From: Patescibacteria group bacterium
GTDB lineage: Bacteria > Patescibacteriota > Patescibacteriia > Patescibacteriales > JAQVLT01
Direction of reading: 5' to 3'
Assembly: GCA_028704015.1 (NCBI GenBank)
Contig: JAQVLT010000004.1
Span: 6,052 to 70,051 of the forward strand
DNA: 64,000 nucleotides
Shown: in pieces, positions 5,645 to 60,322 of the stretch
Layout: every line of letters begins with the position of its first letter
How positions within the stretch are numbered: position 1 is the first letter of the stretch
Program-made: the position numbers and the translations under genes
The notes under the pieces: generated by a model
Databases searched by the model: none
What the model was told of the DNA's origin: nothing
What the model saw: only the letters and a program-made list of their open reading frames with translations

Positions 5645-7612
<1,968 letters not shown>

Positions 7613-12926: not shown

Positions 12927-13271
12927 ATGAATTTATTAATAAAATTTTTAATCATGATTGCAGCAATATTAATTACCGCCTATCTATTGCCTGGCGTAGT
13001 TATTGGTGGAATTTGGTCGGCAATCTGGGTGGCAATAATTATTGGAATAATAAATGTAACCTTAAAACCATTACTTATTTTATTAACTTTGCCAGTGAAT
13101 ATTCTAACGCTCGGCTTATTTACATTTGTCATCAATGCCTTAATGATTTTGCTGGCATCAAGTATAATTAAGGGTTTTGAAGTTAGCGGTTTTTGGATCG
13201 CGATGTTATTTAGCATTGTTTTGTCATTAATCAGTTATTTGTTAAATAGTTTATTCAAAGCGTTTGAATAA
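12927..13271 (+). CDS. Phage holin family 4_2 (DUF360, YvlD-like) membrane protein
   Basis: LPGVVIGG...IINVTLKPLLILLTLPVNILTLGLFTFVINALMILLAS closely follows the YvlD/DUF360 pattern; 114 aa, 4 TM. Confidence 0.75.
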   Translation: MNLLIKFLIMIAAILITAYLLPGVVIGGIWSAIWVAIIIGIINVTLKPLLILLTLPVNILTLGLFTFVINALMILLASSIIKGFEVSGFWIAMLFSIVLSLISYLLNSLFKAFE

Positions 13272-13385: not shown

Positions 13386-13456
13386 CGGAGTGTGGTATAA
13401 CGGTATTACGCACGCTTCGGGTGCGTGTAATCCGGGTTCAATTCCCGGCACTCCGA
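13386..13456 (+). tRNA. tRNA-Pro (anticodon CGG)
   Basis: Cloverleaf folded by hand: acceptor CGGAGTG/CACTCCG, U8, A14, GG in the D loop, anticodon stem CACGC/GCGTG with loop TTCGGGT (U33, CGG, G37), T arm CCGGG-TTCAATT-CCCGG, discriminator A. 71 nt, CCA not encoded. Confidence 0.65.
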
Positions 13457-13479
13457 CAAAATCAAAAAACTCTTACTCT

Positions 13480-14220
13480 ATGAAAAAATTATACCTGTTA
13501 ATTATTTTTATTATTATTTTAGGCGCCTATTTGTATTGCTCCTATGTTTTTATTTACAAAAAAATTGATTGGGCTGGCTTAAGATCGCCTGACAGCCAAA
13601 AAATTTATTTAATCAATAACAATATGCAATCCGGTAAAAATTTGATCTACGTTGCCCTGGGCGATAGTTTAACTGCCGGCGTAGGCGCGGATAAATACGA
13701 ACAATCTTTTACTTATTTATTAGCGCAAAAAATAGCCGGCGATAATCAGATAACTTTAAAAGATTACGGATTGCCAGGCGCTAAGACCGATGATTTGATA
13801 GAAAAACTTTTAAATTCAGCGATTACCGATCAGCCGGATATTCTGACACTATTGATTGGCGTTAATGATGTGCATTATCGGGTTGGCAAAGACGAATTCC
13901 AAAAAAATTACGATGAAATTTTGCGACAACTTACCGCGAAAACAAAAGCCAAAATTTATTTGATTAATATTCCTTACATCGGCGCCAATGATTTGATATT
14001 GCCGCCTTATGATTCTTATTTTGAGTCGCGCGCTCAAGAATTTAACGTCGTAATTAAGGAATTGGCGGAAAAATATCAACTTAAATATATTGATTTATAC
14101 ACCCCGACCGTAGACCAGTTCAAAAAAAACGGCCCGCATTATTCGGCCGATTCTTTTCACCCTTCCGCCGAAGGTTACGCTGTTTGGGCGCAAATAATTT
14201 ATGATCAAATCAATCAGTAA
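13480..14220 (+). CDS. SGNH/GDSL-family hydrolase
   Basis: GDSLTAG (block I), GVNDV and DSFHPSAEGY (catalytic His block). Start set at MKKLYLL because the track's upstream Met would run through the tRNA. Confidence 0.75.
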   Translation: MKKLYLLIIFIIILGAYLYCSYVFIYKKIDWAGLRSPDSQKIYLINNNMQSGKNLIYVALGDSLTAGVGADKYEQSFTYLLAQKIAGDNQITLKDYGLPGAKTDDLIEKLLNSAITDQPDILTLLIGVNDVHYRVGKDEFQKNYDEILRQLTAKTKAKIYLINIPYIGANDLILPPYDSYFESRAQEFNVVIKELAEKYQLKYIDLYTPTVDQFKKNGPHYSADSFHPSAEGYAVWAQIIYDQINQ

Positions 14221-15346
14221 TCCCATTGAAGCCACTTGGATTTTTTCCATTATTTTAATTATCGCGTTGCTGGCCACCGCGCGCCGCAAGAAAGACAACG
14301 ATTTTTTTTCTCTCGCACTCACGCAAGAGTTGAAGGGGTTGGCGATTTTAGCCGTGGTCTTTTCGCATTTCGGTTATTTTTTGACAAGCGATAATCATTT
14401 TTTATTTCCGCTATCCACCTTGGCGGGCGTGGGCGTTAATCTGTTTTTGCTTCTTTCCGGGCTCGGGTTGGTTACCAGCGCCCTGAAAAAACCGTTGCCC
14501 ATTTTCCAATTTTATAAAAAACGTTTGTTGAAATTGTTCGCGCCGCTTTGGATCACGCTAATTGTTTTCTTAACTTTGGATTATTTTGTTTTGCATTTGA
14601 CTTATTCTTGGCCGGTAGTTCTTCAGGCATTTTTGGGCATCTTTCGCCACGCGAACCTCTATACCGATATCAATTCGCCGCTTTGGTATTTCACTTTGAT
14701 TTTATTTTATTATTTGATTTTTCCTTTGGTTTTTTCAAAAAAATACCCTTGGCTCTCGGCTTTGATTATTTATTTTGTTCCGTATTTTATCTTACGGGAA
14801 AATCCGGGCTGGCTGATTAATGTTTTGGGAATGTATCAGGTGCATCTCATGGCTTTTCCGTTGGGAATGATTTTTGGCTGGTTATTTTATAATCCCGGCT
14901 GCTTGGCGCGATTGCCATGGTTTAAAGTAATCGCCGAAAAACTCAAATGCCAAAATAAATTTGCCAAGCTGGTAAAAAATATTAAACCCGCCAGTTATTA
15001 TTTTCTAATGATTTCTTTGATCGTTTTTATTATGCACTTTGTTTGTTATTCCGGAGTGGGTGAGGGGCTCGACAAGGAACAATGGATTAGTATAATTACA
15101 GTCCTGGCGATTATGTTTTTGTTCATCATAAAAAAAATTGAATTTAAATTGTTTTATTGGTTTGGCGTGTACTCTTATGAAATTTATTTAATTCATTGGC
15201 CGCTGGCTTATCGTTATGATGTATTTTATAAATACTTGCCGGCTTGGCTCGCGACTGTTTTTTGTCTGGCGTTTGTTTGGTTTTTAAGCAAAGGGCTGAA
15301 TAAATTGTCAAAAATAATTTTAAGTAAAACTGTTAAACTAAATTAA
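14201..15346 (+). CDS. Acyltransferase-3 family membrane O-acyltransferase
   Basis: ELKGLAILAVVFSHFG hallmark and about 10 TM segments. Overlaps the SGNH gene by 20 nt. Confidence 0.75.
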   Translation: MIKSISNPIEATWIFSIILIIALLATARRKKDNDFFSLALTQELKGLAILAVVFSHFGYFLTSDNHFLFPLSTLAGVGVNLFLLLSGLGLVTSALKKPLPIFQFYKKRLLKLFAPLWITLIVFLTLDYFVLHLTYSWPVVLQAFLGIFRHANLYTDINSPLWYFTLILFYYLIFPLVFSKKYPWLSALIIYFVPYFILRENPGWLINVLGMYQVHLMAFPLGMIFGWLFYNPGCLARLPWFKVIAEKLKCQNKFAKLVKNIKPASYYFLMISLIVFIMHFVCYSGVGEGLDKEQWISIITVLAIMFLFIIKKIEFKLFYWFGVYSYEIYLIHWPLAYRYDVFYKYLPAWLATVFCLAFVWFLSKGLNKLSKIILSKTVKLN

Positions 15347-15351
15347 AATTT

Positions 15352-16362
15352 ATGAATCTTGGCAATCTAAATGTAATCTTAAAATCGTTTCCGTCTTTTC
15401 GCTTTAAACAAGCTGAAGAGGCGATTTACAAAAATCTAATCTCTAATTGGAATGAATCAAATTTACCGAAAGAACTGAAAGAATTATTAAGCAAAGAATG
15501 TCCGCTGGAAATTAAAGCTGAATTGCTAAAATCTAAAGACGGAAAAACTTACAAAGCTTTAATTAATTTGGAAGATGAAAACGCTATTGAGACAGTCCTG
15601 ATGCGCCATAAAGATGACCGAAATACCGTCTGTGTTTCCTCGCAAGTCGGCTGCGCGCTGGGCTGTGATTTCTGCGCCACTGGAAAATCAGGTTTTAAAA
15701 GAAATTTGACCAGCGGAGAAATTATTGAGCAGGTTTTATTTTTTGCTCGTTTCTTAAAAAAAGAAGGCCAAGCAATTACTAATGTAGTATTTATGGGAAT
15801 GGGGGAGCCATTATTAAATTACGACGAGGTGATAAGAGCGATTAAAATTATCAATGACAAAAATAAATTTAATATCGGCGCGAGAAAAATTTCCGTTTCC
15901 ACTGTCGGAATTATTGAAGGCATAAAAAAATTAACCAAAGAACCTCTGCAAATAAATTTAGCGCTTTCTCTACACGCGCCCGACGATAAACTAAGGAATG
16001 AACTCATGCCGATAAACAATAAATATCCGCTAAAAAAAATACTGAGTACGATAAAAGAATATATCGCGAGAACTAACCGCAAAGTAATGATAGAATATTT
16101 GATGCTTGAAAATATCAATGACTATCCCGAGCAAGCCGTTCAATTAGCGGAGTTATTGAACAATAATTTAGAAAGTTTGTACTTCGTAAATTTAATTTCC
16201 TATAACCCAACGGGAATATATAAACCGTCACGCTCCGAAAGAATTGAAAAATTTAAAGAAAATCTGGAAAAATGCGGAGTAGACGCCATTCAAAGATATC
16301 GTTACGGCGTTGATATTAAAGGCGCTTGCGGACAGTTGGCGGGAAAAAGACGCACGAAATAA
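15352..16362 (+). CDS. rlmN: 23S rRNA/tRNA adenine-C2 methyltransferase RlmN (radical SAM)
   Basis: CALGCDFCATG CxxxCxxC cluster and a GMGEPLLN motif. Confidence 0.8.
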   Translation: MNLGNLNVILKSFPSFRFKQAEEAIYKNLISNWNESNLPKELKELLSKECPLEIKAELLKSKDGKTYKALINLEDENAIETVLMRHKDDRNTVCVSSQVGCALGCDFCATGKSGFKRNLTSGEIIEQVLFFARFLKKEGQAITNVVFMGMGEPLLNYDEVIRAIKIINDKNKFNIGARKISVSTVGIIEGIKKLTKEPLQINLALSLHAPDDKLRNELMPINNKYPLKKILSTIKEYIARTNRKVMIEYLMLENINDYPEQAVQLAELLNNNLESLYFVNLISYNPTGIYKPSRSERIEKFKENLEKCGVDAIQRYRYGVDIKGACGQLAGKRRTK

Positions 16363-16364
16363 TT

Positions 16365-17069
16365 ATGATTATAAAAAATAAAAAAATAATTCACGGAATT
16401 TCTCTCAGAAAAAACGGCTCAATGAAATTTCTCGGCAACATTCAAGATGAATTAATTAAAAATAACAGAAAAAAATTCTTTGCCAAAATTAATATCAAAG
16501 AAAATAATATTATTTCCGCCGGCCTGTCGCACCAAGATAATATAAAAATAATTTCGCAAAAAGACAAAGGAAAAATAATCAAGAATTGCGACGGACTCGT
16601 CACTATTGAAAAAAATTTAATTTTAACCGTAACAGTTGCCGATTGCCTGCCAATTTTTATTTATGATCGCGAGAAAAAGATTGCGGGAATTATTCATGCC
16701 AGCTGGCGCAATTTGCGTTTGAATATTTTATCCCAGGCCGTTGAGCTATTAAAAAATAAATACAAAATCAATCCAAAAAATTTGTTAGTTCATATTGGTC
16801 CGTATATTAGTAAATGCCATTTTGAGGTAAAAAACGACGTCGCAAATAAATTTAAAAAATATAAAAATGCGATAATTATAAAAGATAAAAAAATATTTAT
16901 TGATTTGGCGGAAATTGCCAGAGGGCAATTAATAAGAGGGGATATAATAAAGAAAAATATAAAAATCAGCAAAGAATGTACGTATCACCAAAAAAATAAA
17001 TATTTTTCGCATCGTCGTGAAAAAACCAAAGATATTAAAGCAATGATCGCGTATATCGGCTTAAAATAA
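16365..17069 (+). CDS. pgeF: Peptidoglycan editing factor PgeF / YfiH (DUF152 laccase-domain protein)
   Basis: TVADCLPIFIYD and HASWRN motifs. Start at MIIKNKK just after the rlmN stop. Confidence 0.7.
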   Translation: MIIKNKKIIHGISLRKNGSMKFLGNIQDELIKNNRKKFFAKINIKENNIISAGLSHQDNIKIISQKDKGKIIKNCDGLVTIEKNLILTVTVADCLPIFIYDREKKIAGIIHASWRNLRLNILSQAVELLKNKYKINPKNLLVHIGPYISKCHFEVKNDVANKFKKYKNAIIIKDKKIFIDLAEIARGQLIRGDIIKKNIKISKECTYHQKNKYFSHRREKTKDIKAMIAYIGLK

Positions 17070-17092
17070 TTGTAATATAATAAATTTAAATT

Positions 17093-17677
17093 ATGAATTT
17101 TGCCCATTGGTTAGTTATATTAAGCGTATTTGTAAGCGCTAGCGGTTCCTACGCGTATATTCGTGATACGTTAAGCGGAAAAACAAAACCAAATCGCGTG
17201 TCTTGGTTAATGTGGTCATTGGCGCCGCTTATTGGAACTTTAGCTGCTTTATCAATAAAAGCTGATTTTTGGGCAACTTCTCGTATTTTTTTGGCAGGAT
17301 TTTTCCCCCTGCTAGTTTTTATATTTTCTTTTGTAAACCCAAAAAGTTATTGGAAATTAACCATATTTGATGTTATCTGCGGTATTTGTTCTGTAGTCGC
17401 TTTAATTGCTTGGTGGTTAATAAATTCACCACAAATAGCAATACTTATGTCTGCGATTGGAGATGGTTTTGCTGCTCTGCCCACTATTAGAAAAGCTTGG
17501 AAATTTCCCGAGAGTGAAACTGGAATAACTTATGCCGCCGCATTAATAAGTGTCATACTAGTCCTGCCTTCCATCCCTGTTTGGGATATTAAAAATTCTG
17601 CTTTCCAAATTTATCTTTTACTAGCCAATTCAATTTTATTGTTTGCCGTGTATCGAAAAAAAATATTTTCATTATAA
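17093..17677 (+). CDS. Hypothetical integral membrane protein
   Basis: Five or six hydrophobic segments. Confidence 0.5.
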   Translation: MNFAHWLVILSVFVSASGSYAYIRDTLSGKTKPNRVSWLMWSLAPLIGTLAALSIKADFWATSRIFLAGFFPLLVFIFSFVNPKSYWKLTIFDVICGICSVVALIAWWLINSPQIAILMSAIGDGFAALPTIRKAWKFPESETGITYAAALISVILVLPSIPVWDIKNSAFQIYLLLANSILLFAVYRKKIFSL

Positions 17678-17681
17678 AAAC

Positions 17682-17948
17682 ATGTTAAAAAAAATTATCA
17701 AAACATTTCAAGATAAAAAAGAAGTTTATTTGCGCGTAAAAATTCATCCCAACTCTTCCCAAAATAAAATTACGGAAATAATGTCTGATGAAACCGTTAA
17801 AATCAATATCGCCGCGCAGCCGGTCAAAGGAAAGGCAAATCAGGAATTGATAAAATTTCTGGCGCAAGAATTTGGCGTGACAAAAAATAATATCAAAATT
17901 ATCAGCGGAGCGGGGGAGAGAGTAAAATTGGTAAAAATTATTGGATAA
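17682..17948 (+). CDS. DUF167 (YggU) family protein
   Basis: AQPVKGKANQELIKFLAQEFGV...ISGAGERVKLVKI fits the DUF167 pattern. Start at MLKKIIK. Confidence 0.6.
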   Translation: MLKKIIKTFQDKKEVYLRVKIHPNSSQNKITEIMSDETVKINIAAQPVKGKANQELIKFLAQEFGVTKNNIKIISGAGERVKLVKIIG

Positions 17949-17953
17949 TTTTA

Positions 17954-18003
17954 TTTTGTCATCTCAACGATCCCGCCCGCGGCGGGACTCGGAATGACAA
18001 AAA
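17954..18003. repeat. Short palindromic element with TTTTGTCAT / ATGACAAAA termini and internal TCCCGCCCGCGGCGGGA hairpin
   Basis: The terminal inverted repeats match the larger element at 41900-42060. The core hairpin is near-identical to the anticodon-arm replacement in the pseudo-tRNA at 13306-13321. Confidence 0.5.
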
Positions 18004-18009
18004 TGATGT

Positions 18010-18669
18010 ATGGAAACCAATTCTAAAAAAATTCCCAATCATATCGGCATAATCATCGGCGGCCAAGAAGAATGGGCGCGTGAACGCAATCTGCCGAAAG
18101 AAGACGGCTATGCCAAGTCTTTTGAAAAAATTTGGCGCGCGCCAAGTTGGTTTTTTAATAATGGCGTAAAAATTATTTCGGTTTTGATTTTATCCGCCAG
18201 CGATTGGGAAAAAGATCAGGAAAAATTAAATAATTTGCTCAAACAACTAAAAATTTCTCTGGAAAACCAGTTGAAAGAAGATTTTCATTTCAAAATAAAT
18301 ATTTATGGCGCGACCAATGAGCTTCCCGGTGATCTACCAGATCTTTGCGCGGAAATTATTGATAAAACAAAAAACAATTCCGAGGGGGCACTAAACCTTT
18401 TTATAAATTACAGCGGCCGAGGAGAAATAATAGGCGCGGTGCAAAAAATGATAAACAATAATATACAAGTTGAACAAACTCACGAGGGAATTTTAAGAAA
18501 ATATTTATTAAGCAGCGAGGCGCCTGACCTTGATTTGATTTTATTAACCGGCGGCATTAAAAATTTACCAGACTTTTTGCCTTGGCAATCTATCAATAGC
18601 CGGATAATTTTGTCCAACAAATATTGGCCGGACATTGAAGAGAAAGATGCGGAAAATATTTTAAAATAA
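18010..18669 (+). CDS. Undecaprenyl-diphosphate synthase (cis-prenyltransferase) family protein, divergent
   Basis: HIGIIIGGQEEWA aligns to the UPPS HVAIIMDGNGRWA box, and LLTGG...PDFLPWQS...WPD to the C-terminal RTSGE...FLLWQ...WPDF box. In this by-eye alignment the catalytic Asp position is Gly. Confidence 0.55.
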   Translation: METNSKKIPNHIGIIIGGQEEWARERNLPKEDGYAKSFEKIWRAPSWFFNNGVKIISVLILSASDWEKDQEKLNNLLKQLKISLENQLKEDFHFKINIYGATNELPGDLPDLCAEIIDKTKNNSEGALNLFINYSGRGEIIGAVQKMINNNIQVEQTHEGILRKYLLSSEAPDLDLILLTGGIKNLPDFLPWQSINSRIILSNKYWPDIEEKDAENILK

Positions 18670-18695
18670 CTAAAATTATTTTACTTTTTGAAATA

Positions 18696-18724
18696 TTGAC
18701 ATTGTGTTAACATGGTGGTATTAT
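18696..18724 (+). promoter_or_regulatory. Consensus sigma70-type promoter TTGACA-17 nt-TATTAT
   Basis: TTGACA at 18696-18701, exact 17-nt spacer, TATTAT at 18719-18724, about 75 nt upstream of the GC-rich ORF. Confidence 0.55.
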
Positions 18725-18797
18725 ATTTCATAAACTTTTACGTTCATTTAATATCACCAACACTAATCACGTCACAAACAAGGAAAAGGAGGGGGCT

Positions 18798-19466
18798 ATG
18801 CCAAGTTGGATTCTCGGACTAAACCAGACAAACTTTATCGACCCGGATCTTCTTGGCGAAGAAGAGGTTGATAAGGGGTATGCTCCACTGTCAGGGAAAT
18901 GGATCGCCGGCGAAGAAGAACGATGCTACTTGCCCGAGCCTGACGGAGACGAAGAACCCGATGACGTTGTCGTCAAAGCAAATCCCGTACCGCCTTTAGC
19001 TACGGGCTGGGAAGAGCTGGTGACCGCCGGTGGTCTCATGCTTACGGATTATTTGGCGCTGGCAGGCGACAAAGATCCGATATTCGGCGTTGTGCTGCTC
19101 ACGGCAAGTACGATCATCAGAGACAGGGGCTGTTCTGCGGGAGGCACTCTTGGCAAAAGCAAGGTTACCACCCGTCGAATAAAGATGCAGGCGCATCGTT
19201 GCAACGGCAGAAAGCCTTGGTTTGAAACAAGGAAAAGAAAAAAACTGCCGATTTCGTTCACCACCGGTCATCTCCTGCCAAACTTCGCTGCCTATGATGT
19301 TTTGGCGGTAACCATCGCCCAGCTGATGGTAATCACTGGGCGCGCCAAGCCGACAAATGACCCCCCCGAGGAGGAAAAACCCGAGTTCGCCATCGCGCCC
19401 GAAGACATCTATGAGATGATGAGCGGACAGAAGCAGCTCTGGCCACAAATTTCACGGGCAATGTGA
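18798..19466 (+). CDS. Hypothetical protein (222 aa), GC-rich foreign-looking gene; acidic N- and C-terminal segments, basic RK-rich centre
   Basis: Strong SD AAGGAGGGGG 4 nt before the ATG. GC and codon usage (GCC/CTG/CCG) are very different from the neighbours. Own promoter and two terminators. No family recognised. Confidence 0.6.
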   Translation: MPSWILGLNQTNFIDPDLLGEEEVDKGYAPLSGKWIAGEEERCYLPEPDGDEEPDDVVVKANPVPPLATGWEELVTAGGLMLTDYLALAGDKDPIFGVVLLTASTIIRDRGCSAGGTLGKSKVTTRRIKMQAHRCNGRKPWFETRKRKKLPISFTTGHLLPNFAAYDVLAVTIAQLMVITGRAKPTNDPPEEEKPEFAIAPEDIYEMMSGQKQLWPQISRAM

Positions 19467-19480
19467 GTTATTTTTCTTCC

Positions 19481-19515
19481 GAGGAGGACGAGGTAATCGT
19501 CCTCCTCATTTTTTA
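19481..19515 (+). terminator. Rho-independent terminator 1 (GAGGAGGACGA...TCGTCCTCCTC + T-run)
   Basis: 11-bp stem, then ATTTTTTAT, 15 nt after the stop. Confidence 0.6.
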
Positions 19516-19553
19516 TCATTTTAAAAGAGTGATTTTTTTTTATTTTTAAATTT

Positions 19554-19595
19554 AAGACGCCCGATGTCTTGCGGGAGACATCGGGCGTCTTTTTA
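19554..19595 (+). terminator. Rho-independent terminator 2 (AAGACGCCCGATGTCTT...AGACATCGGGCGTCTT + TTTTA)
   Basis: 16-bp stem followed by a T-run. A tandem second terminator. Confidence 0.6.
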
Positions 19596-19622
19596 TAGTG
19601 TTAATTTTTGGAAGCAATAACA

Positions 19623-22268
19623 TTATTTCGTCCTCATTACCACTTCATTCTTTATCCCCAGATCAATCACGATTTTATCGCCAGCCTTGACTTTTCCTTC
19701 AATAATTTCCAGGGCCAACTCGTCCAAAATCATATTTTGGATTATCCGTTTGAGCGGCCGGGCGCCAAAGGTGACGTCATAGCCTTTTTCTGCCAACATT
19801 TTTTTCACCTTTGCGCTGATATTTATATTTATTTCTTTATTTTTAAGCCGCTTCCGCACTTTATCCAATTCCAAGTCAACAATTTTAGTTAATGCTTCCT
19901 CGTTTAAATTTCTGAAAATTACAATCTCGTCAATTCTATTTAAAAATTCCAACTTGAAATGTTCTTTAAGAATTTTATCAATCTTTTCTTTCATTTCTTC
20001 TTTACGCATTTCCGCGGCATGTTTGGCATCGCTCCCGTCAGAGAAACCGATTGAATATTGTTTGATGACTTCATTACCAAGATTTGAAGTCATGATAATT
20101 ATTGTATTCTTGAAATTCGCCACTCGGCCCTTGGAATCAGTTAATCGGCCATCATCAAGAATTTGAAGCAGCATATTAAATACTTCCGGATGCGCTTTTT
20201 CTATTTCATCAAAAAGCACAACGCTATACGGACGGCGGCGAATCTTTTCCGTTAATTGCCCGCCTTCCTCATGGCCGATATAGCCGGGAGGGGAGCCGAT
20301 CATCCGCGCCACGCTGTGCTTCTCCATAAATTCGCTCATATCCAGCCGTATAAGCGCGTTTTCGTCATTAAACATAAATTCGGCCAAGGCCTTGGCTAAC
20401 TCTGTCTTACCGACGCCTGTGGGTCCAACGAAGAGAAACGAGCCAATTGGCCGCTTTTCCTCGCTAATTCCAGCTCTGGAACGCCTGATTGCGTTTGACA
20501 CTGCTTTAATCGCTTCTTTTTGGCCAACCACGCGTTTATTCAGTTCTTCCTCGGCTTTGCTTAATTTTTTTATTTCGCCTTCCAACATTTTGGAAACCGG
20601 CACACCTGTCCAGCGGGAAACAACTTTGGCAATATCTTCTTCGTCAACTTCTTCTTTCAAAATGCGCTGGCCTTTTTGCTGAATTTTTATCAATTCCGCT
20701 TCCAGTTTTTTAATTTCTTTTTCCAAACTCGGAATTTGTGAATATCTGATTTCCGCAACGCGCGTTAAATCATCACCCTTACGTTCGGTAATTTCCGCTT
20801 CAATCTTCAGTTCATCAATTTTCTTTTTGCTTTCACGGATTTTGGAAATAATATTTTTTTCATTGCTCCAATGAAGTTCCAGTTGATCAGCTTTTTCTTT
20901 AAGCTGTTCTAGCTCTTTGTTTATTTCTTTTAATTTTATTTCGTCTTTTTTCTCTTTTGACTTGGGCGAAACAATACCGGCCTTAGCGATTTCCAGGCGT
21001 TTAATTTCTCGCTTTAAATTATCTAATTCTTCAGGCATAGAATCAATATCCATGCGCAAAGCAGAAGTCGCTTCGTCAATTAGGTCAACGGCTTTATCCG
21101 GTAAAAATCTGTCGGTAATATAACGGCTGGATAATTTTACCGCGGAAATTATCGCATCATCGGTAATCCGAACGCCATGATGCACTTCATATTTTTCTTT
21201 GATGCCGCGAAGAATGGCAATCGCGTCTTCCTGGCTTGGCTCTGACACATAAATCGGCTGGAAGCGTCTTTCCAGTGCCTGATCGCGTTCAATATATTTT
21301 TGATATTCTTTTGTCGTGGTCGCGCCAATCGTGCGTAAATCGCCGCGCGCCAGAGCTGGTTTTAACATATTAGAAGCGTCCATCGCGCCTTCGGCTGCGC
21401 CAGCGCCGACAAGCGTATGAAGTTCATCAATAAATAAAATAACTTTGCCTTGTTGTGATTTAATTTCTTTGAGTACTGCTTTCAAGCGATCTTCAAATTC
21501 GCCTCTGAATTTCGCGCCAGCAATCATAGTGCCAAGATCAAGGCTTACAATCTCTTTGTTTTTTAAATTTTCCGGCACATCACCGGCAATAATTCTTTGC
21601 GCCAAACCTTCAACAATTGCAGTTTTTCCAGTGCCGGCTTCGCCTATTAAAACCGGATTATTCTTCGTGCGGCGAAGTAGCACCTGCATAATTCTTCTAA
21701 TTTCTTCATCACGGCCAATCACCGGATCTAATTTTTTCTGCCGCGCCATTTCCGTTAAATTAACTGTATATTTTTCTAGAATTTTATATTTTGTTTCCGG
21801 CTCCGGATCGGTAATAGTTTGCGAACCGCGCAATTCTGATAAAATTTTTAAAACTTTTTCGTATTCCACGCCAAGACTTAATAAAATTTCCTGGGCTTTT
21901 GATTTGATTCCGATTAAAGACAAAAAAATATGCTCAGTAGAAATGAATTCATCGCCCATTTTGTCCGCTTCTTTCTTGGAACGCTCCAAAATCATGGCAA
22001 CTTCAGCTGTGCCCTGAACCGCACCAATATTTGCTCCTTGAGCTATGCTTTCCTTGGGTAAATTTTCAATATCGGATAAAATTTTACTCTCTACAAAATC
22101 CGTATCAATGGATAGTTTTTCCAAAATTGGCAAAACTAAACTTTCTTTTTGTTGGAGTAGGGAAGCAAGCACGTGCAATGCCTCAATGTGCTGCTGGCCG
22201 TTGTCCTGCGCGATGATTTGCGCGTTAATAATCGCTTCTTGAGATTTATTGGTAAATTTATTGAACAT
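19623..22268 (-). CDS. clpB: ATP-dependent chaperone ClpB
   Basis: Two AAA+ modules ([15 protein letters not shown] and [16 protein letters not shown] Walker A), a long coiled-coil middle domain and an N-terminal Clp_N domain; 881 aa. Confidence 0.9.
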
Positions 22269-22338: not shown

Positions 22339-22465
22339 TTTAAATATAAAATATACTAAAATTAATGTCAAGCGACAAATATTGACTAACAATTAATAAT
22401 ATAATATTGTTTTATTATTAACTAATTCTGCTCATTTTTCACATCAAGGGGGAGGGAAATTAAAA

Positions 22466-22912
22466 ATGAAAGCGAAAATAATTCAAGATTGGGCCTTGTT
22501 TGTTTCAGCTATTAGCCTTGCGCTTTTTCTTGACCATCGCTGCTATACGATGTTAAGCGGAGACAGCTATCCATGGTCGTCGTGGTGGCAAGTTTTTCCA
22601 CGCGAGCTTGCAAAATCCGCGACCATATCCGTGGTCTGTGCTTGCTTCCTGACCGTCCTAATCACCAAATTATTACTCAAGCTAGATTTTTTCTCTCAAA
22701 TTGAGAACAGAATAAAGCTTGAGCAAGAGAGACAAACTGTTTTTCTGGTTATGGCAGTAGGAGTGGCGACATTCTACTGCATATACGCAATAATTATGAA
22801 TAGTCTTGGCTCAACAGCCAATGCTATTCATAATATGGTATTGCAATCTTTTGTTTATATTGCTTGTCTTGTTTTATGTCTTTTTTTTACATTTATGATA
22901 AATAGAACGTAA
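22466..22912 (+). CDS. Hypothetical membrane protein (148 aa)
   Basis: SD GGGGGAGGG 8 nt upstream; 3-4 hydrophobic segments; somewhat elevated GC. Confidence 0.5.
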   Translation: MKAKIIQDWALFVSAISLALFLDHRCYTMLSGDSYPWSSWWQVFPRELAKSATISVVCACFLTVLITKLLLKLDFFSQIENRIKLEQERQTVFLVMAVGVATFYCIYAIIMNSLGSTANAIHNMVLQSFVYIACLVLCLFFTFMINRT

Positions 22913-24375: not shown

Positions 24376-24930
24376 ATGGAGACTAAACGTCTATTTTTAG
24401 CATTAAATTTATCAAGCAAGGAAAAAGATATAATTTTCAGCACAATCGAAGTTTTGGCGGCGCAAAGCAACGGCATAAAATGGGTGGGGCCGGAAAATCT
24501 GCATATCACTTTGCGATTTTTGGGCGATATTGATACCGAATTAGAAGAAGAAATAAAATTGGAATTAGAAAAATTGGAAAATAACTTTGGCGAATTGAAA
24601 TTTCAGGCGAGAGATTTGAGTGCTTTTCCGAATTCAGACGAACCGCGCGTTATTTATCTTGACAGTTTTCAGACTAATGGCCAAACGGCTAGCAATTTGT
24701 ATTATAAAGTAAAAGAAATGGCGGAAAACTTCGGTATCAGAACCGACAATCGCCCGTGGACGCCGCACATTACTTTGGGACGAGTAAAAAACGATCGCGC
24801 CTATGCAAACTTAAAACAAAATTTCAGCGCTCTACCTTTTGATTTTTCCGTAACCAGTTTTGAATTAATGGAATCAGAACTAACTTTTAATGGCAGCGTT
24901 TATAGAATAGTGAGGAGTTATAAATTATAA
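24376..24930 (+). CDS. thpR: RNA 2',3'-cyclic phosphodiesterase ThpR / LigT (2H phosphoesterase)
   Basis: Two H-x-T-x motifs (HITLRF and HITLGR) at the expected spacing; 184 aa. A TTGCTA-17-TATTAT promoter precedes it. Confidence 0.75.
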   Translation: METKRLFLALNLSSKEKDIIFSTIEVLAAQSNGIKWVGPENLHITLRFLGDIDTELEEEIKLELEKLENNFGELKFQARDLSAFPNSDEPRVIYLDSFQTNGQTASNLYYKVKEMAENFGIRTDNRPWTPHITLGRVKNDRAYANLKQNFSALPFDFSVTSFELMESELTFNGSVYRIVRSYKL

Positions 24931-32978: not shown

Positions 32979-33197
32979 TTAAACCCTTTCAAGGTTTTCA
33001 AGATTCCACTCCCTCCTTTCCAAACGTCCTTTGTTTTTACCACTTACAATTCTGACACGAACATATACGGACCGTTTAGTATCATGCGAGAAATGACGCG
33101 GGTATATTTTAGCCGATATTAGCTCCCCGATGAGACCCGAGCGTGCATTCTTCACTTTCATTCCGCCACGCAGATCTGCCTCTTTGAGTTTGGCCAT
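32979..33197 (-). CDS. Small GC-richer hypothetical protein (72 aa, basic)
   Basis: GGAGGG SD 4 nt upstream and its own terminator, immediately downstream of the tyrosine recombinase gene. No family recognised. Confidence 0.45.
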   Translation of the reverse strand: MAKLKEADLRGGMKVKNARSGLIGELISAKIYPRHFSHDTKRSVYVRVRIVSGKNKGRLERREWNLENLERV

Positions 33198-33218: not shown

Positions 33219-34181
33219 TTAGTTTTTTAACTTCTTACCGCTATGTAGATTCTTATGAATGTCGCGGAGTTGCTTATTAGTAACGTGAGTATAAATTTGC
33301 GTAGTTGCAATATTCCTGTGACCAAGAAATTCTTGCACCAAGCGCAAATCTACGCCGTTAGACAGTAGATCTGTGGCAAATGAGTGGCGAAGGGTATGCG
33401 GAGTAGCCATTACCGGCAAACCGCCAATTTTGACGTATTTTTTGACAATATCTTCAACGCTTTTAGGTGTTAGACGTCTAGAAGCGGCGGTTTTACCGGT
33501 ACCTGGCTTATAATTTATAAACAACGCTTCATCTAGATCGCCACGGCCGTCTAAATATTTTCTCAACCATTCAATCGCGCGCTCGGAAAAATAAACCGTG
33601 CGAACCTTTTGCCCTTTGCCAATCACGGAAATCTCCAAATCTTTAATGCCGGTTTTTATTTTTAACTGCTCGCGATTCAAAGCAACCAGTTCAGCCACGC
33701 GCAATCCGGTAGAAAATAAAGTTTCTAGAAGCGCTCGATCCCTTAAACCAATCTTGGTTTTTATATCCGGGGTCAGAAGCAGGCGTTCAACCTGGTCTAA
33801 ATTTAAAAATTTAACTTCTTTATCGGCCTTGTCCTTGGCTAATTTGATTTTAGAAGGCGACAAAGTGGCAATATCTTTTTCTACAAAAAATTCCAGCAAG
33901 CTGCGTAGAGCAATCAAGTAATAATTCTGTGTAGATTTTTTTAATGATTTTTTTGTTCGCGGATCAACATGGCGAGATAAAAAAACACGATACTTCCAAA
34001 CGTGATCGCTGGTCAAGTCTTTAGGCTTCAGTTTATCCAACTTGTTGTCCCTCAACCAGCTAAAGAATCTCTGCAAAAAACGAGTATAATTTTCCTGAGT
34101 TTTAGAGCTCAAGCCTTTTTCAATTTCGGAATAATCCAAAAAGTCGGTTAAGTATTGAATTATTGTTTTATTTTTTGTCAT
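33219..34181 (-). CDS. Site-specific tyrosine recombinase, XerC/XerD family
   Basis: N-terminal SAM-like core-binding domain, then a C-terminal catalytic domain with R (GLRVAEL), HTLRHSFAT, LGH and TQIYTHV (Tyr nucleophile). Confidence 0.8.
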   Translation of the reverse strand: MTKNKTIIQYLTDFLDYSEIEKGLSSKTQENYTRFLQRFFSWLRDNKLDKLKPKDLTSDHVWKYRVFLSRHVDPRTKKSLKKSTQNYYLIALRSLLEFFVEKDIATLSPSKIKLAKDKADKEVKFLNLDQVERLLLTPDIKTKIGLRDRALLETLFSTGLRVAELVALNREQLKIKTGIKDLEISVIGKGQKVRTVYFSERAIEWLRKYLDGRGDLDEALFINYKPGTGKTAASRRLTPKSVEDIVKKYVKIGGLPVMATPHTLRHSFATDLLSNGVDLRLVQEFLGHRNIATTQIYTHVTNKQLRDIHKNLHSGKKLKN

Positions 34182-34777: not shown

Positions 34778-35671
34778 TTAACGATAATATACCCTTTCTT
34801 TAAACCTTAGATCAATATACTTCAGATTTTTAAAATTATTTTCTAATTTTTCTTTTCTGAGAATCACTAATCTGTCTAACTGTGATTTTATATCTTCCTG
34901 CGAATTAAAATATATTTCCGGTCCATTATTTATTTTAATTTTAACAGTATTTACGTTTTGGTCAATTATAAATTTTTCAATCGTTTCATTTATCGGGTTA
35001 ATTTTCTGAAACTCATTGAATAAATAAGTTATAGCGACAATATCAGTATTATTCAAATCAATTTTATTATTATTTATTTTTGAACCACCCTGGTTATAAA
35101 CTATCGGGTATTCCCCTACTTTTATTTCCAAAGAATTTATCTCATTAATTATATTCCCTTCGCTATCAATATTGTAATATTTATCCCCCTCATTCCAAAT
35201 TAAAATTATTATTTTTTCTTCCACCTTTATAACAATTGACCTTTTAATCAAATTTTTATGCGCGGAAACATTTTTAAAATTATATTGCGCGGCTAAATCG
35301 TTTGCCAATTTATTGGTGTTAAAAACAAAAATATTATCCTGAGGCATTATAGCGTATCGTCTTTCACCAACCTGGCTCCATGCAATATTTAAAATCTCAT
35401 CGGAGTTAACTCTTAATAAGCTATTATTTATTGATATACTTTTTATTGAAAGAAAATTAGAAAAAAATAAAAAATAAAAAATAAAAATCGCCAATAGCAA
35501 AATTAAAAAAAATATTAATTTTATTTTTACAGAAAATTTTGGCAAAGAACTGGCGAATTTGGTTTTTTTGTTATGAAAAAAAGGATTTTCAAACCTCTTC
35601 CCTCTCTTATTTACTCTTCCGGACTGAGTAAAAAACTTTTTTTCTTTAAAATTATTCCCTCTTTGAAACAT
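34778..35671 (-). CDS. FtsQ/DivIB-like cell-division protein (single TM + POTRA-like region)
   Basis: Basic N-terminus, one TM, a periplasmic beta-rich domain, and position immediately downstream of ddl as in dcw clusters. Sequence-level assignment is weak. Confidence 0.5.
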   Translation of the reverse strand: MFQRGNNFKEKKFFTQSGRVNKRGKRFENPFFHNKKTKFASSLPKFSVKIKLIFFLILLLAIFIFYFLFFSNFLSIKSISINNSLLRVNSDEILNIAWSQVGERRYAIMPQDNIFVFNTNKLANDLAAQYNFKNVSAHKNLIKRSIVIKVEEKIIILIWNEGDKYYNIDSEGNIINEINSLEIKVGEYPIVYNQGGSKINNNKIDLNNTDIVAITYLFNEFQKINPINETIEKFIIDQNVNTVKIKINNGPEIYFNSQEDIKSQLDRLVILRKEKLENNFKNLKYIDLRFKERVYYR

Positions 35672-38671: not shown

Positions 38672-39229
38672 TTATTTCCATAATTTATAAATTTTACAAT
38701 TTTTTCTGTCTAACAAACTTTTTAAAGTAAAATTATTAACTATCATCAAAGTTAAACTATTAATTTCCGCCTCGCAATATAAATTTTTTCCTATCTCTTT
38801 TTTAGCTTCTTTTATTTTTTCATCGGTTAAATGGCGACCAATGGTAACGTGCGGTTTAAATTTCTTTTCATAATCCTTATATTCTGGCAAAACATAATCG
38901 CCATATTTTGCTAAATTTTTGCTGATCACTTTTTGCAACTTTAATAATTCTGGATTTTTGTCAGCTTTAACCATTATACACCAACCACGCGAAGATTTAT
39001 TGCTCGTCCATAGCTTTGAAAAACCTAATTTTATAGACCTAAAATTTTTAGCAATAATTTTAATATCCTCTTTTAAATTGTTAATATCTTTTTCTTTTAC
39101 TTTTGTTCCGTTTTTTAACGATATATGAAATTTGAACGGTTTATCATATTTTTTTCTAAAACCGTCAAACCAATCAGGTTTTTTTGTTAATTTGAATTCC
39201 ACAATAACATTAAAATATTTCATAATCAC
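38672..39229 (-). CDS. 2H phosphoesterase superfamily protein (LigT-like)
   Basis: Two H-x-[ST]-x motifs (FHISL and HVTIG) about 95 aa apart. Confidence 0.5.
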   Translation of the reverse strand: MIMKYFNVIVEFKLTKKPDWFDGFRKKYDKPFKFHISLKNGTKVKEKDINNLKEDIKIIAKNFRSIKLGFSKLWTSNKSSRGWCIMVKADKNPELLKLQKVISKNLAKYGDYVLPEYKDYEKKFKPHVTIGRHLTDEKIKEAKKEIGKNLYCEAEINSLTLMIVNNFTLKSLLDRKNCKIYKLWK

Positions 39230-57131: not shown

Positions 57132-58721
57132 TTATATTAAACTTTCTCCTGTCATTTCCTTCGGTTGCTCCAAATTTAAAATTTTTAAAATTGTAGGGGA
57201 AATATCCGCCAATGCTCCTTCTGGCTCCAAAAGACTTAAATCATGCCCCGGAGCTTCTTCAAAACCGATATTTTTCCCTTCAAATTCTTTACTGACAATA
57301 ATAAACGGCACCGGACTATTGCTGTGGCCTTTCTCATAAACCTCTGTCTGCATATTTAACATTGATTCCGCATTTCCATGGTCAGATGTAATAATTATTG
57401 TTCCATTTTTAATTAAAACTAAATTTACTAATTTCTCCAAACATTTATCCAGACATTCAATGGCTTTAATTACCGCCTTTACGTCTCCGGCATGCGCCAC
57501 CATATCGGGATTTGCATAATTAACCGCGATAAAATCGTAATAATTCTTTTCTATCTGTTTAAGTAACTCCTCGGTAATTTTTAATGCGGACATCTCTGGC
57601 TTTAAATCGTAGCTAGATACAATCGGTGAAGGAACTAATATGTCGTCCTCGCCAGCAAACTTTTTGTCCTCCCCGCCATTAAAAAAATAAGTGACATGGG
57701 CATATTTTTCCGTCTCGGCAATATGCAATTGTTTCAAACCCGCGTTAGCAATAACCTCGCTGATTGAATTTTTAAAATACTCGGGAGGAAAAGCAACACT
57801 GACCGCCAAATCTTTTTCATACTCCGTAAAACTGATAAAAAATAAATTTTTAAAAATTTTTGAACTTTTTACTTTGTCGGGAAACAAAAATGCTTTAGTT
57901 AATTGCCTGGCGCGATCGGGACGAAAATTGAAAAAAATTACCGAATCATTATCACCTACCTTGGTTATACTTTCTCCATACTTTGCAGCTACCAATGAAG
58001 AAATTTCTTCGTCATAAATTTTGTTTTGATAGCACTGGCTGATAGCGTCATTAATATTTTCAACTTTTTTACCTTCACCATTAACAATAGCTTCATAAAC
58101 CATAGCCGTTCGCTCCCAGTGATTATCGCGATCCATGGCATAAAATCTTCCGGAAACCGTTGCAATTATACCGATTCCAATTTTTTCCAACTCATCTTTT
58201 ATCTTATTAATTAATTCCAATCCTCTTTGATTATTAATATCCAAACCGTCAAGAAACAAATGGAGATAAACTTCTTTGATTTTGTTTGTTTTCGCCAGTT
58301 TCAACAAAGCAAACAAATGCTCGGTAGAAGCATGCTTATTAGCATCGGAAATTAACCCCAGAAGATGCAAATTTGAGTTATTCTCTTTAACATTTTTTAT
58401 CGCGCTTTTTAAAACCGGATTCCTAAAAAAACTTTTATCTTTGATAGATTTATTTATTCGTAATAAATCTTCAGTAACTATCCTGCCCAAGCCGATATTC
58501 ATATGACCTACCTCGCTATTACCTGGCTGACTATCCGGCAATCCCACGGCACTACCGGCTGCTTTTAGCGTAGCGGCAGGATAATTAGCAATTAACTTAT
58601 TAAAAAACGGCGTTTCCGCCTGAGTAATTGCATTACCGCTATAATTTTGCTTCACTCCCCATCCGTCTAAAATAATCAGAAGCAAAGGTTTGGGGGGCAA
58701 AATATTTAAATCTTTATCCAT
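57132..58721 (-). CDS. gpmI: 2,3-bisphosphoglycerate-independent phosphoglycerate mutase (copy 1)
   Basis: ILDGWG, GHMNIGLGR (Ser nucleophile region) and SDHGN metal-binding motifs; 529 aa. Confidence 0.85.
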   Translation of the reverse strand: MDKDLNILPPKPLLLIILDGWGVKQNYSGNAITQAETPFFNKLIANYPAATLKAAGSAVGLPDSQPGNSEVGHMNIGLGRIVTEDLLRINKSIKDKSFFRNPVLKSAIKNVKENNSNLHLLGLISDANKHASTEHLFALLKLAKTNKIKEVYLHLFLDGLDINNQRGLELINKIKDELEKIGIGIIATVSGRFYAMDRDNHWERTAMVYEAIVNGEGKKVENINDAISQCYQNKIYDEEISSLVAAKYGESITKVGDNDSVIFFNFRPDRARQLTKAFLFPDKVKSSKIFKNLFFISFTEYEKDLAVSVAFPPEYFKNSISEVIANAGLKQLHIAETEKYAHVTYFFNGGEDKKFAGEDDILVPSPIVSSYDLKPEMSALKITEELLKQIEKNYYDFIAVNYANPDMVAHAGDVKAVIKAIECLDKCLEKLVNLVLIKNGTIIITSDHGNAESMLNMQTEVYEKGHSNSPVPFIIVSKEFEGKNIGFEEAPGHDLSLLEPEGALADISPTILKILNLEQPKEMTGESLI

Positions 58722-58735
58722 AAAAAAATAATAAA

Positions 58736-60322
58736 TTATCTTATTAAACTCCTACCCGTTATTTCTTTCGTTTTTTTTCTATTTAGCAAATCCAATATAG
58801 TTGGCATAATATCGCCTAAATTTCCACCTTTACGTAATTTAATATTCGGCTCTAAATTTTTTCCGACGATAATAAATGGAACGGAGTTAACCGAATGTTT
58901 TGTATCAACTTCTCCGGTTTCCAGATTTATCATTTCTTCAATATTGCCGTGATCGGCTGTTACCAAAACCGTACCGCCAATTCTCAAATAAGCCCTAACA
59001 ATATCTCCCAAATAATGATCCACGGCTTCACAACATTTAATTCCCGCCTCCAAATTGCCGGTGTGTGCCACCATGTCTGGAGCGGCGAAATTTAAAACCG
59101 TAAAATCGTATTTCCATTTTTTTTCTATTTTATTCAAATTTTTAATCACCTTAATAGATAATTCCTTGGTTCTCATTGCTGGTGTTTCATCATACGATTT
59201 TACATCCGGCGAAGGAATCATTTGCTGTTCCTCGCCATTAACCCTGCCGGAATAGCCGCCGTTGAAAAAATAAGTAACATGGGCGTATTTTTCTGTCTCG
59301 GCAATATAAAGCTGAGTTAAATCTGATAATACCATAGGCAGGGTATTTTTCAAGTCTAAACTCGGAAATGCGGAAAGAATAGAATCTAGGTCAGGACCAA
59401 AATCAGTCATAGCAACAAAAAATAAATTTTTTAATACCTTTTTTCTTTTAAATGCTGCGGGGTTATCTTTATTAAAATCTTTTTGCACAAAAACTTTGGA
59501 AAGCTGGCGAGCCCGATCAGACCGCAAATTAAAAAAAATGACGCTGTCATTATCATTAATCCTCGGGCATTGTTTTAATTTGCTATTTAAAATAATATGC
59601 GGCTCAAGAAATTCATCGCTCTCCCCCTGATTATAACTTTTGGTAATAGCTTCTTCGGCGCTCTTGGCGGTTTTACCTTCGCCCATAACTAAGGCATTGT
59701 AAGCTTTCTCAGTTCTAATCCACTTTTTCTTTCTATCCATAGCATAAAAACGCCCCATAACCGTAGCAATGCATTCGCCATTTTTAAATGATTTACGCAA
59801 ATCCTGCACTAATTTTAAAGAAGCATATTTTCCCGAATCACGGCCATCGGTAAAAAGATGCAAATACACATTTTTTATATCATTCCTTTTGGCAAATTCT
59901 AACAAGGCAAGCAAATGATCGGGATCGCTATGCGGACTCTGGCCGTTAGAAAGCATCCCCATAATATGAAGATTTGATTTATTTTTTTCAACATGTTTAA
60001 CCGCTTCAAGAAAAGCGGTATTTTTAAAAAATATCCCGTCAGTGATGCTTTTGCTAATACGCACTTCATCTTGTTCCACTACTCTTCCCGCGCCAATGTT
60101 CATATGTCCGGCTTCACTATTTCCGACTTGATTATCCGGCAGACCGACACACTCGCCATGAGCACAAAGCAATGTATTTGGATATTTTTTTAAAAGCCCG
60201 TTCATAGTCGGTGTTTTTGCTAAAGTTACCGCATTTCCTTTGTTGGGCGGCGCAATCCCCCAGCCGTCAAGAATGACGAGAACTAAGGGTAGTATATTTT
60301 TTCCTTTCGGTTTATTTTTCAT
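58736..60322 (-). CDS. gpmI: 2,3-bisphosphoglycerate-independent phosphoglycerate mutase (copy 2, tandem paralog)
   Basis: ILDGWG, GHMNIGAGR and ADHGN motifs; 528 aa. Clearly diverged from copy 1 but co-linear. Confidence 0.85.
   Translation of the reverse strand: MKNKPKGKNILPLVLVILDGWGIAPPNKGNAVTLAKTPTMNGLLKKYPNTLLCAHGECVGLPDNQVGNSEAGHMNIGAGRVVEQDEVRISKSITDGIFFKNTAFLEAVKHVEKNKSNLHIMGMLSNGQSPHSDPDHLLALLEFAKRNDIKNVYLHLFTDGRDSGKYASLKLVQDLRKSFKNGECIATVMGRFYAMDRKKKWIRTEKAYNALVMGEGKTAKSAEEAITKSYNQGESDEFLEPHIILNSKLKQCPRINDNDSVIFFNLRSDRARQLSKVFVQKDFNKDNPAAFKRKKVLKNLFFVAMTDFGPDLDSILSAFPSLDLKNTLPMVLSDLTQLYIAETEKYAHVTYFFNGGYSGRVNGEEQQMIPSPDVKSYDETPAMRTKELSIKVIKNLNKIEKKWKYDFTVLNFAAPDMVAHTGNLEAGIKCCEAVDHYLGDIVRAYLRIGGTVLVTADHGNIEEMINLETGEVDTKHSVNSVPFIIVGKNLEPNIKLRKGGNLGDIMPTILDLLNRKKTKEITGRSLIR

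Follow-up and report, generated by a model that had tools for sequence, protein, structure and literature searches.

A phage moron is a gene of deviant guanine-plus-cytosine (GC) content that has its own promoter and its own factor-independent terminator (Juhala/Hendrix; reviewed in PMC3594210). Among prokaryotic genes in general, about 8-9% are atypical, with GC deviations of up to about 16 points (GeneMarkS-2, PMC6028130). Here we describe a cassette that recalls both kinds of gene. It holds a single open reading frame (ORF) of 222 codons, ORF222, and lies between a uppS-like gene and clpB in a 64-kb stretch of contig JAQVLT010000004.1 (assembly GCA_028704015.1). We refer to this whole stretch as the window; the NCBI source name for the window and for the protein is 'Patescibacteria group bacterium'. 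GC-rich intergenic islands in AT-rich bacteria are also formed by the large structured non-coding RNAs (ncRNAs) OLE, ROOL, GOLLD, HEARO and raiA.

The cassette resembles a moron in being a single gene between unrelated genes, with its own promoter and terminator, both found as consensus matches, and with a differing GC content; it is presumably expressed independently of its neighbours. Morons sit in phage or prophage genomes, whereas the cassette is found on the chromosome, between uppS and clpB. Its surroundings yielded neither phage genes nor PHROG matches nor attachment sites and consist of housekeeping genes, among them uppS, DUF167, clpB and radical-SAM. Because the prophage context was looked for and is absent, the cassette is not a true moron, and it is moron-like in anatomy only. 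A reading made earlier from the bare letters, the sequence-only reading, had proposed a moron-like cargo, which agrees with the anatomy (PMC3594210) but not with a prophage or mobile-element context.

ORF222 shares with atypical and orphan genes a composition and codon use far from the typical model, and it has no homologue beyond one population. It differs from them in that its +17.7 GC points lie at or beyond the reported extreme (PMC6028130), in that it deviates upward, which is the rarer direction, and in that it also departs from its host in the mode of translation initiation, with no donor that could be named. With ncRNAs of the OLE, ROOL and GOLLD type the cassette has in common an island of ~0.7 kb that is GC-rich, has a strong promoter and an intrinsic terminator, and lies between protein genes. 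Unlike these RNAs, it has neither a covariance-model match nor excess folding stability, and it contains a full-length ORF with coding periodicity that is led by a Shine-Dalgarno (SD) sequence. On balance, we favour the view that ORF222 forms a true transcription unit, monocistronic and protein-coding, and is a lineage-restricted orphan in a block of foreign composition that extends from the SD to the terminator. Most likely it is an ordinary, if extreme, case of a recently acquired, moron-like orphan gene.

Expression signals and coding capacity of ORF222

The cassette begins with a sigma-70-type promoter, recognised by its match to the consensus (18696..18724, + strand), in which TTGACA (18696-18701) is separated by a 17-nt spacer from the extended -10 element TGgTATTAT (TATTAT at 18719-18724). 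With a score of 11/12 plus the TG it is the top promoter-like site in 17500-20500, and the 25 nt upstream of it are A/T-rich (GC 0.115). Eight sites in the window match at 11/12, one of them just upstream of clpB, and consensus promoters are not alien to the host genome. No terminator was found in the interval from the uppS stop codon to the promoter. Placing the start site by the position of the -10 element gives a putative 5' leader of ~67 nt (18731..18797, + strand) that is A/C-rich and essentially unstructured; together with the first codons its folding energy is merely -9.1 kcal/mol. At the end of the leader the sequence has the SD AAGGAGG (18786-18792, + strand), followed by 5 nt and the ATG at 18798. 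The anti-SD duplex energy of ORF222, -12.3 kcal/mol, is the strongest among 50 ORF starts.

Downstream, a first hairpin begins 14 nt past the ORF222 stop codon (terminator 1, 19481..19507, + strand). Its 11-bp GC-rich stem, GAGGAGGACGA / TCGTCCTCCTC, is followed by ATTTTTTAT (dG -22 kcal/mol), and it is the predicted terminator of the cassette itself. Terminator 2 (19554..19591) is a perfect palindrome of 16-17 bp with TTTTTAT after it on the + strand, with a dG of -31.5 on the + and -30.8 on the - strand. Read on the - strand, the same hairpin comes 32 nt after the end of clpB and is followed by a poor U tract; no other copy of the palindrome, as would be expected of a repeated element, was found in the window. 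This hairpin is probably resident, belonging to the convergent uppS/clpB pair, and would serve the cassette as a back-up.

The sequence-only reading had listed a promoter, an SD, a 222-aa ORF, two hairpins and uppS-like and clpB flanks, and all of these are present in their places. It had taken the hairpins as two tandem terminators, of which the first can be kept as the cassette's own and the second is better read as the resident clpB-side hairpin. The promoter, SD and terminator signals were recognised by consensus, from which we infer promoter and terminator activity.

The way in which ORF222 is predicted to recruit ribosomes is foreign, as is its composition. At the 49 other ORF starts of the window the anti-SD duplex energy has a median of +0.6 kcal/mol, and only three of them reach -6 kcal/mol or lower. 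At many host starts the ATG is preceded, at a distance of 6-13 nt, by a TAnnnT (-10-like) box. Such a pattern ahead of the start indicates leaderless transcription, as in group C of GeneMarkS-2 (PMC6028130), and its frequency here suggests that leaderless transcription may be widespread in this Patescibacterium. The cassette had been described as an insulated, self-sufficient unit, and this is supported. Its composition, synonymous codon use and initiation signal are all unlike those of the neighbours.

ORF222 (18798..19466, + strand; from the ORF list and the NCBI annotation) encodes 222 aa and is annotated by NCBI as hypothetical protein PHT51_01900. Its bases are distributed by codon position as in coding DNA, with G1 0.36, T1 0.13 and G2 0.19 (chi-square p = 6.7e-5), and the period-3 signal-to-noise ratio is 4.4. 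A stop-free run of 227 codons was reached in 16 of 5000 dinucleotide shuffles, and the other five frames contain 4-11 stop codons. Moreover, no other start codon intervenes between the preceding in-frame stop and the start, which has an optimally spaced SD, and the frame ends shortly before terminator 1. The region is coding now, or was coding until very recently, and ORF222 is very likely protein-coding.

Two homopolymers lie inside ORF222, A7 at 19238-19244 and C7 at 19359-19365, and their lengths are the same in all three assemblies that carry the block. A one-base slip at A7 would truncate ORF222 within about 20-25 codons; a programmed frameshift at this site was rejected, as both shifted frames reach a stop within that distance. 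In the predicted minimum-free-energy (MFE) structure the G-run of the SD pairs with the C7 run ~570 nt downstream.

The encoded protein has a striking distribution of charges. Residues 1-64 are acidic (net -12) and rich in Pro and Gly, residues 65-107 form a moderately hydrophobic stretch, residues 108-150 a basic centre (net +13), residues 151-182 a second hydrophobic stretch, and residues 183-222 an acidic, proline-rich tail (net -4). That the protein has no transmembrane segment, as stated earlier, is nearly right: the Kyte-Doolittle maximum of 1.63 at residues 163-181 is borderline, and this segment would make a poor membrane helix because it holds an Asp. The product is most likely net-acidic and largely disordered; its hydrophobic core would be small, and a basic loop would lie between the acidic tails. 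In some nucleic-acid-binding proteins acidic tails mask a basic surface. The charge pattern of ORF222 agrees with such an arrangement around a small core. The sequence-only reading had considered a nucleic-acid-binding effector, for which the +13 centre flanked by acidic tails is the sole indication. It is a tentative and rather doubtful suggestion that the protein binds nucleic acid or another polyanion, with the acidic tails as intramolecular competitors.

Searches for relatives of ORF222 gave nothing beyond the protein itself. A word-indexed search among 5.8 billion proteins returned self only, and an exhaustive phmmer search of 1.84 billion cluster representatives added two matches. Both were rejected as spurious, being Ig-like or other tandem-repeat proteins whose scores are summed over repeats, with 26-33% identity in low-information segments. 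No match was found in Pfam, PHROGs, PADLOC, NCBIfam or the PDB sequences. Neither tblastn nor blastn of the cassette matched phage and plasmid records, scanning viral (IMG/VR) and JGI metagenome contigs with back-translated peptides gave nothing, and an exact 27-mer from the cassette was not found in JGI metagenome or viral (IMG/VR) contigs. Since the translations of the other five frames (stop-free segments of at least 30 aa) match nothing either, misreading of the frame or strand of a known gene does not explain the block. The sequence-only reading could name no family for the protein, and ORF222 is indeed without a recognisable family and an orphan in all collections searched. It had also considered a toxin, for which PADLOC returned nothing; no defence or toxin family was found at E <= 1-10 in PADLOC, Pfam and NCBIfam.

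These results bear on the possibility that the block is recently acquired junk DNA, in which the frame is open by chance or as a relic of the donor and not as a functional gene under selection. Such a view would be in line with a block that is an orphan in every frame and for whose product no confident fold is predicted, with selection that is not evident, since two metagenome-assembled genomes (MAGs) are identical across the block, and with an SD that is an unusual signal in this genome. However, junk is unlikely to combine a near-consensus promoter and an optimal SD with an ORF that takes up the whole unit and a terminator of its own, and the coding signature is significant. The strong expression of a useless protein would furthermore be costly in a reduced genome. 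We therefore regard junk DNA as an unlikely explanation.

Composition and origin of the block

The window is AT-rich (GC 0.357). Within it a compositionally foreign block of 720 bp (18788..19507), which extends from the SD through the ORF to the end of the first hairpin, has a GC content of 0.535, as compared to 0.372 outside. A two-state likelihood scan places the maximum-likelihood change-points at 18788 and 19507 (log-likelihood ratio of 29.6 nats), and the maximum 720-nt GC window begins at 18788, while the best one elsewhere in the window has 0.451. For comparison with the host we used the 47 other ORFs of at least 150 aa within the 64-kb window. ORF222 has a GC content of 0.535, whereas the host ORFs have a mean of 0.358 (standard deviation (sd) 0.041, maximum 0.429; z = 4.3). 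At third codon positions (GC3) the value is 0.574, against 0.344 +/- 0.051 in the host (maximum 0.448; z = 4.5). The GC anomaly noticed in the sequence-only reading is thus more than 4 sd above the host ORFs in both measures. Under the host model, the synonymous-codon log-likelihood per codon is -0.131 for ORF222 and 0.148 +/- 0.036 for the host ORFs, with a minimum of -0.003. Normal variation among the genes of this organism does not account for ORF222 within the window, its codon score being below that of all 47 host ORFs.

The codon choices that are reversed relative to the host are CTG/CTC, ATC, AAC, GAC, CAG and AAG. GCC/GCG, GGC and CCG are preferred in host genes as well, so that of the codons previously called alien only CTG deserves the name and GCC, GGC and CCG do not. 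Translational selection was rejected as the cause of the codon shift, because enolase and the tRNA synthetases, like other core genes, keep host usage. Composition and codon use are both beyond the host range, as is expected of a horizontally transferred gene. The block is probably of foreign origin, and from the composition alone we infer that its acquisition was recent.

It could be argued that ORF222 is a native gene whose GC content follows from the amino acids of its product (Gly, Ala, Pro, Glu, Asp) together with gene-specific codon or mRNA selection. The GC contents of promoter, leader and inter-terminator spacer are 0.31, 0.31 and 0.09, which is host-like, and the type of promoter is shared with host genes such as clpB. 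The host itself leans towards GCC/GCG, GGC and CCG, and the GC of first and second codon positions reflects in part an acidic protein rich in Pro and Gly. Against this view, the GC3 of 0.574 exceeds the host maximum of 0.448, two-fold codon choices are reversed (ATC, AAC, GAC, CAG and AAG, together with CTG), and the synonymous log-likelihood is about 7.7 sd under the host mean. Nor is the shift seen in enolase, the tRNA synthetases, GyrB and ClpB, and relatives that keep the DUF167-uppS pair have no orthologue. Native origin appears quite unlikely to us.

If the block of foreign composition was acquired, the following course would be the simplest. Donor DNA of roughly 50-55% GC would most likely have entered the uppS/clpB spacer by illegitimate recombination. 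The ancestral order would have been uppS -> hairpin <- clpB, and about 0.85 kb would have been inserted upstream of the resident hairpin. The result would be a moron-like islet outside any prophage, in an AT-rich Patescibacteria chromosome. The housekeeping RNA polymerase holoenzyme is expected to initiate at about 18731 from the near-consensus extended -10 promoter, and the unstructured 67-nt leader would expose the strong SD, allowing initiation by SD/anti-SD pairing. In this ORF222 would be unlike nearly all of its neighbours, which have no SD and often look leaderless. Transcription would end at the 19481-19507 hairpin, and read-through would be caught at 19591 by the clpB-side hairpin.

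Several observations speak against the acquisition of a functional foreign gene. No donor or homologue was found in the protein, cluster-representative, viral, metagenome, phage and plasmid collections, and this counts against it because a relative would be expected had the transfer come recently from a lineage that has been sampled. Promoter, leader and inter-terminator spacer share the AT content of the host (GC 0.09-0.31), so these regulatory parts may be native or may have arisen at the site. AlphaFold2, run on the single sequence without an alignment, gave no confident fold, with predicted local distance difference test (pLDDT) scores of 31 (full protein) and 37 (residues 62-185). No sister genome with an empty site was found in the collections searched, which held only distant relatives, and the two MAGs are too alike for a ratio of nonsynonymous to synonymous substitutions (dN/dS) over the cassette. 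The compositional baseline is confined to the 64-kb window rather than being genome-wide. Finally, no mobile-element hallmarks were found at the cassette.

With regard to the latter, a transposon, an insertion sequence (IS) or a miniature inverted-repeat transposable element (MITE) would be expected to leave flanking repeats, and none that convinced us were found, the best being AT-rich matches of 70-83%. There is no transposase among the neighbours, and terminal repeats or target duplications were not detected. The sole tyrosine recombinase (33219-34181, Phage_integrase family) is Xer-like and lies 14 kb from the cassette. An integron cassette would have an attC site with RYYYAAC / GTTRRRY cores at its 3' end and an ORF that lacks a promoter. 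In 19467-19622 we found no GTTRRRY core; the hairpins are perfect terminator-type palindromes and ORF222 has its own promoter. In the nearest relatives, whose UppS is 47-49% identical, the DUF167-uppS pair is kept, and an MgsA-type ATPase or a peptidase is encoded downstream of uppS, with no convergent clpB; synteny extends no further than uppS.

An exact 13-nt direct repeat, AAACAAGGAAAAG, occurs at 18776-18788 and at 19225-19237. One copy of AAACAAGGAAAAG is located at the 5' edge of the block, at the junction of leader and SD, and the other inside ORF222 at the RKRKK codons. The chance expectation for such 13-nt repeats is ~0.02 in 1.5 kb of uniform sequence. The repeat could be a trace of microhomology or a purine-rich coincidence. 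Elsewhere in the window, a small protein of the Phage_holin_4_2 family (~12927-13271, + strand) is annotated in the second MAG; its gene lies just upstream of the only tRNA of the window, tRNA-Pro at 13386-13457, and no other phage-like genes were seen nearby.

Structured RNA and assembly artefact as alternatives

Where an AT-rich genome has a GC-rich island with a strong promoter, the island often turns out to be a structured RNA, and this was therefore the first possibility that we tested. At the gathering score, Rfam (4227 families) identified a single tRNA in the whole window and nothing on the cassette. A permissive Rfam scan (E <= 10) returned only sub-threshold matches, all of them on the terminator hairpins, and ARAGORN found nothing at the cassette. 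A known RNA family was rejected on this basis. As for a novel structured RNA, folding of 18731-19470, which leaves out the terminators, was compared with dinucleotide shuffles and gave z = -0.2 on the + and -1.4 on the - strand, so that there is no excess folding stability and this candidate was rejected as well.

In principle, a large structured ncRNA could appear as a GC-rich intergenic island in which the 222-codon ORF is incidental. It is true that the genome is AT-rich and that the island brings a strong promoter and a terminator of its own, the 'protein' that it encodes is an orphan with no predicted fold, and the - strand, too, holds an open frame of 150 codons. However, none of the 4227 Rfam families match, and without the terminators the MFE is not better than that of shuffled sequence on the + strand. 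The three-base periodicity is significant and accompanied by the base signature of coding DNA, the spacing between the SD and the frame's first start codon is ideal, and the 5' 55 nt are AT-rich and unstructured, as in the leader of an mRNA. We consider a structured ncRNA highly improbable.

The sequence itself was compared with two further assemblies. A Logan contig of 6177 bp (run SRR22315502) is identical to window positions 14035-20211 and covers both block junctions. A second NCBI MAG, GCA_028707515.1, aligns with its contig JAQWAV010000001.1 to window positions 12496-32912 (20.4 kb), with two single-nucleotide differences (21414 and 24705) and none in the cassette. The identical ORF222 protein is listed under two NCBI accessions, one per MAG. 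No repeats able to mislead an assembler were found at the junctions 18788/19507. A misjoin at the ORF222 block is very unlikely, because three assemblies agree and misleading repeats are absent from the junctions, and we are all but certain that the cassette sequence is real. A misjoin or a contaminant had been named earlier as what could undo the finding; although the GC shift is abrupt and the gene is missing from every other dataset, it is hardly conceivable that reads of a GC-richer organism were mis-joined into a Patescibacteria contig, as the junctions are identical in all three assemblies (the window MAG, GCA_028707515.1 and Logan SRR22315502), lack repeats of the kind mentioned and both lie within host-like AT-rich DNA that bears matched expression signals.

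Surroundings of the cassette and its significance

The gene content of the window is that of ordinary Patescibacteria housekeeping genes, among them genes for an RlmN-like radical SAM protein, a YfiH-like protein, DUF167, UppS, ClpB, tRNA synthetases, RF-1, GyrB, enolase, iPGM, Ddl and an FtsQ-like protein. On the left, the cassette is preceded by the uppS-like gene for a polyprenyl diphosphate synthase (18010..18669, + strand; PF01255 Prenyltransf, E = 4e-40). On the right it faces the convergent clpB (19623..22268, - strand), which encodes the domains Clp_N, AAA, AAA_2 and ClpB_D2-small.

Two other ORFs without a Pfam family have a strong SD. ORF148 (22466-22912, + strand) has a membrane-like sequence and the SD GGGGGAGGG (-11.5 kcal/mol), with a promoter-like site TTGACT...TATAAT at about 22373-22397 and a leader of ~60 nt. 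Its GC content of 0.387 is inside the host range, and a 138-aa version is annotated in the second MAG. clpB is thus bracketed by two orphan-like, SD-led single-gene units, ORF222 and ORF148. ORF72 (72 aa; 32979-33197, - strand; SD -10.0 kcal/mol) lies directly downstream of the tyrosine recombinase and is called in the Logan assembly only, being absent from the NCBI annotation. One may speculate that ORF222 is the founder of a new protein family that is expressed at a high level by this episymbiotic Patescibacterium. Together with ORF148 and ORF72 it would belong to a small set of orphans that alone use strong SD-dependent initiation in a genome otherwise SD-less and largely leaderless. Such orphans would make up a translational class under its own control, with accessory roles or roles in host interaction. 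We regard this as improbable.

Some further features of the window are of interest in their own right. The opposite extreme of low GC content (0.25-0.29) is represented by genes at 5645-7612, 34778-35671 and 38672-39223, all on the - strand; one of these is FtsQ-like, and the 655-aa ORF at 5645-7612 has no Pfam family. The gene at 38672-39223 (GC 0.255) is at the same time the second of two genes for LigT / 2'-5' RNA ligase-like phosphoesterases, the first being located at 24376-24930 (+ strand). Two tandem full-length iPGM paralogues (iPGM_N + Metalloenzyme; 57132-58721 and 58736-60322, - strand) are found directly downstream of enolase (60312-61586, - strand), an unusual duplication for a reduced genome.

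The significance of the cassette is limited by the fact that it comes from a single population, offers no comparative handle and is tied to no mechanism; it bears on no question of long standing, and orphans of deviant composition are common. If ORF222 is indeed an acquired protein-coding unit, it would be a clean and minimal case of gene gain by a reduced, AT-rich Patescibacteria chromosome. A foreign block of 0.7 kb would then have come to lie between convergent housekeeping genes, equipped with strong expression signals and with no mobile-element machinery. Moreover, its SD-dependent start, set against the SD-less, leaderless-looking genes of the host, would provide a natural test of whether the ribosomes of such bacteria retain SD pairing.

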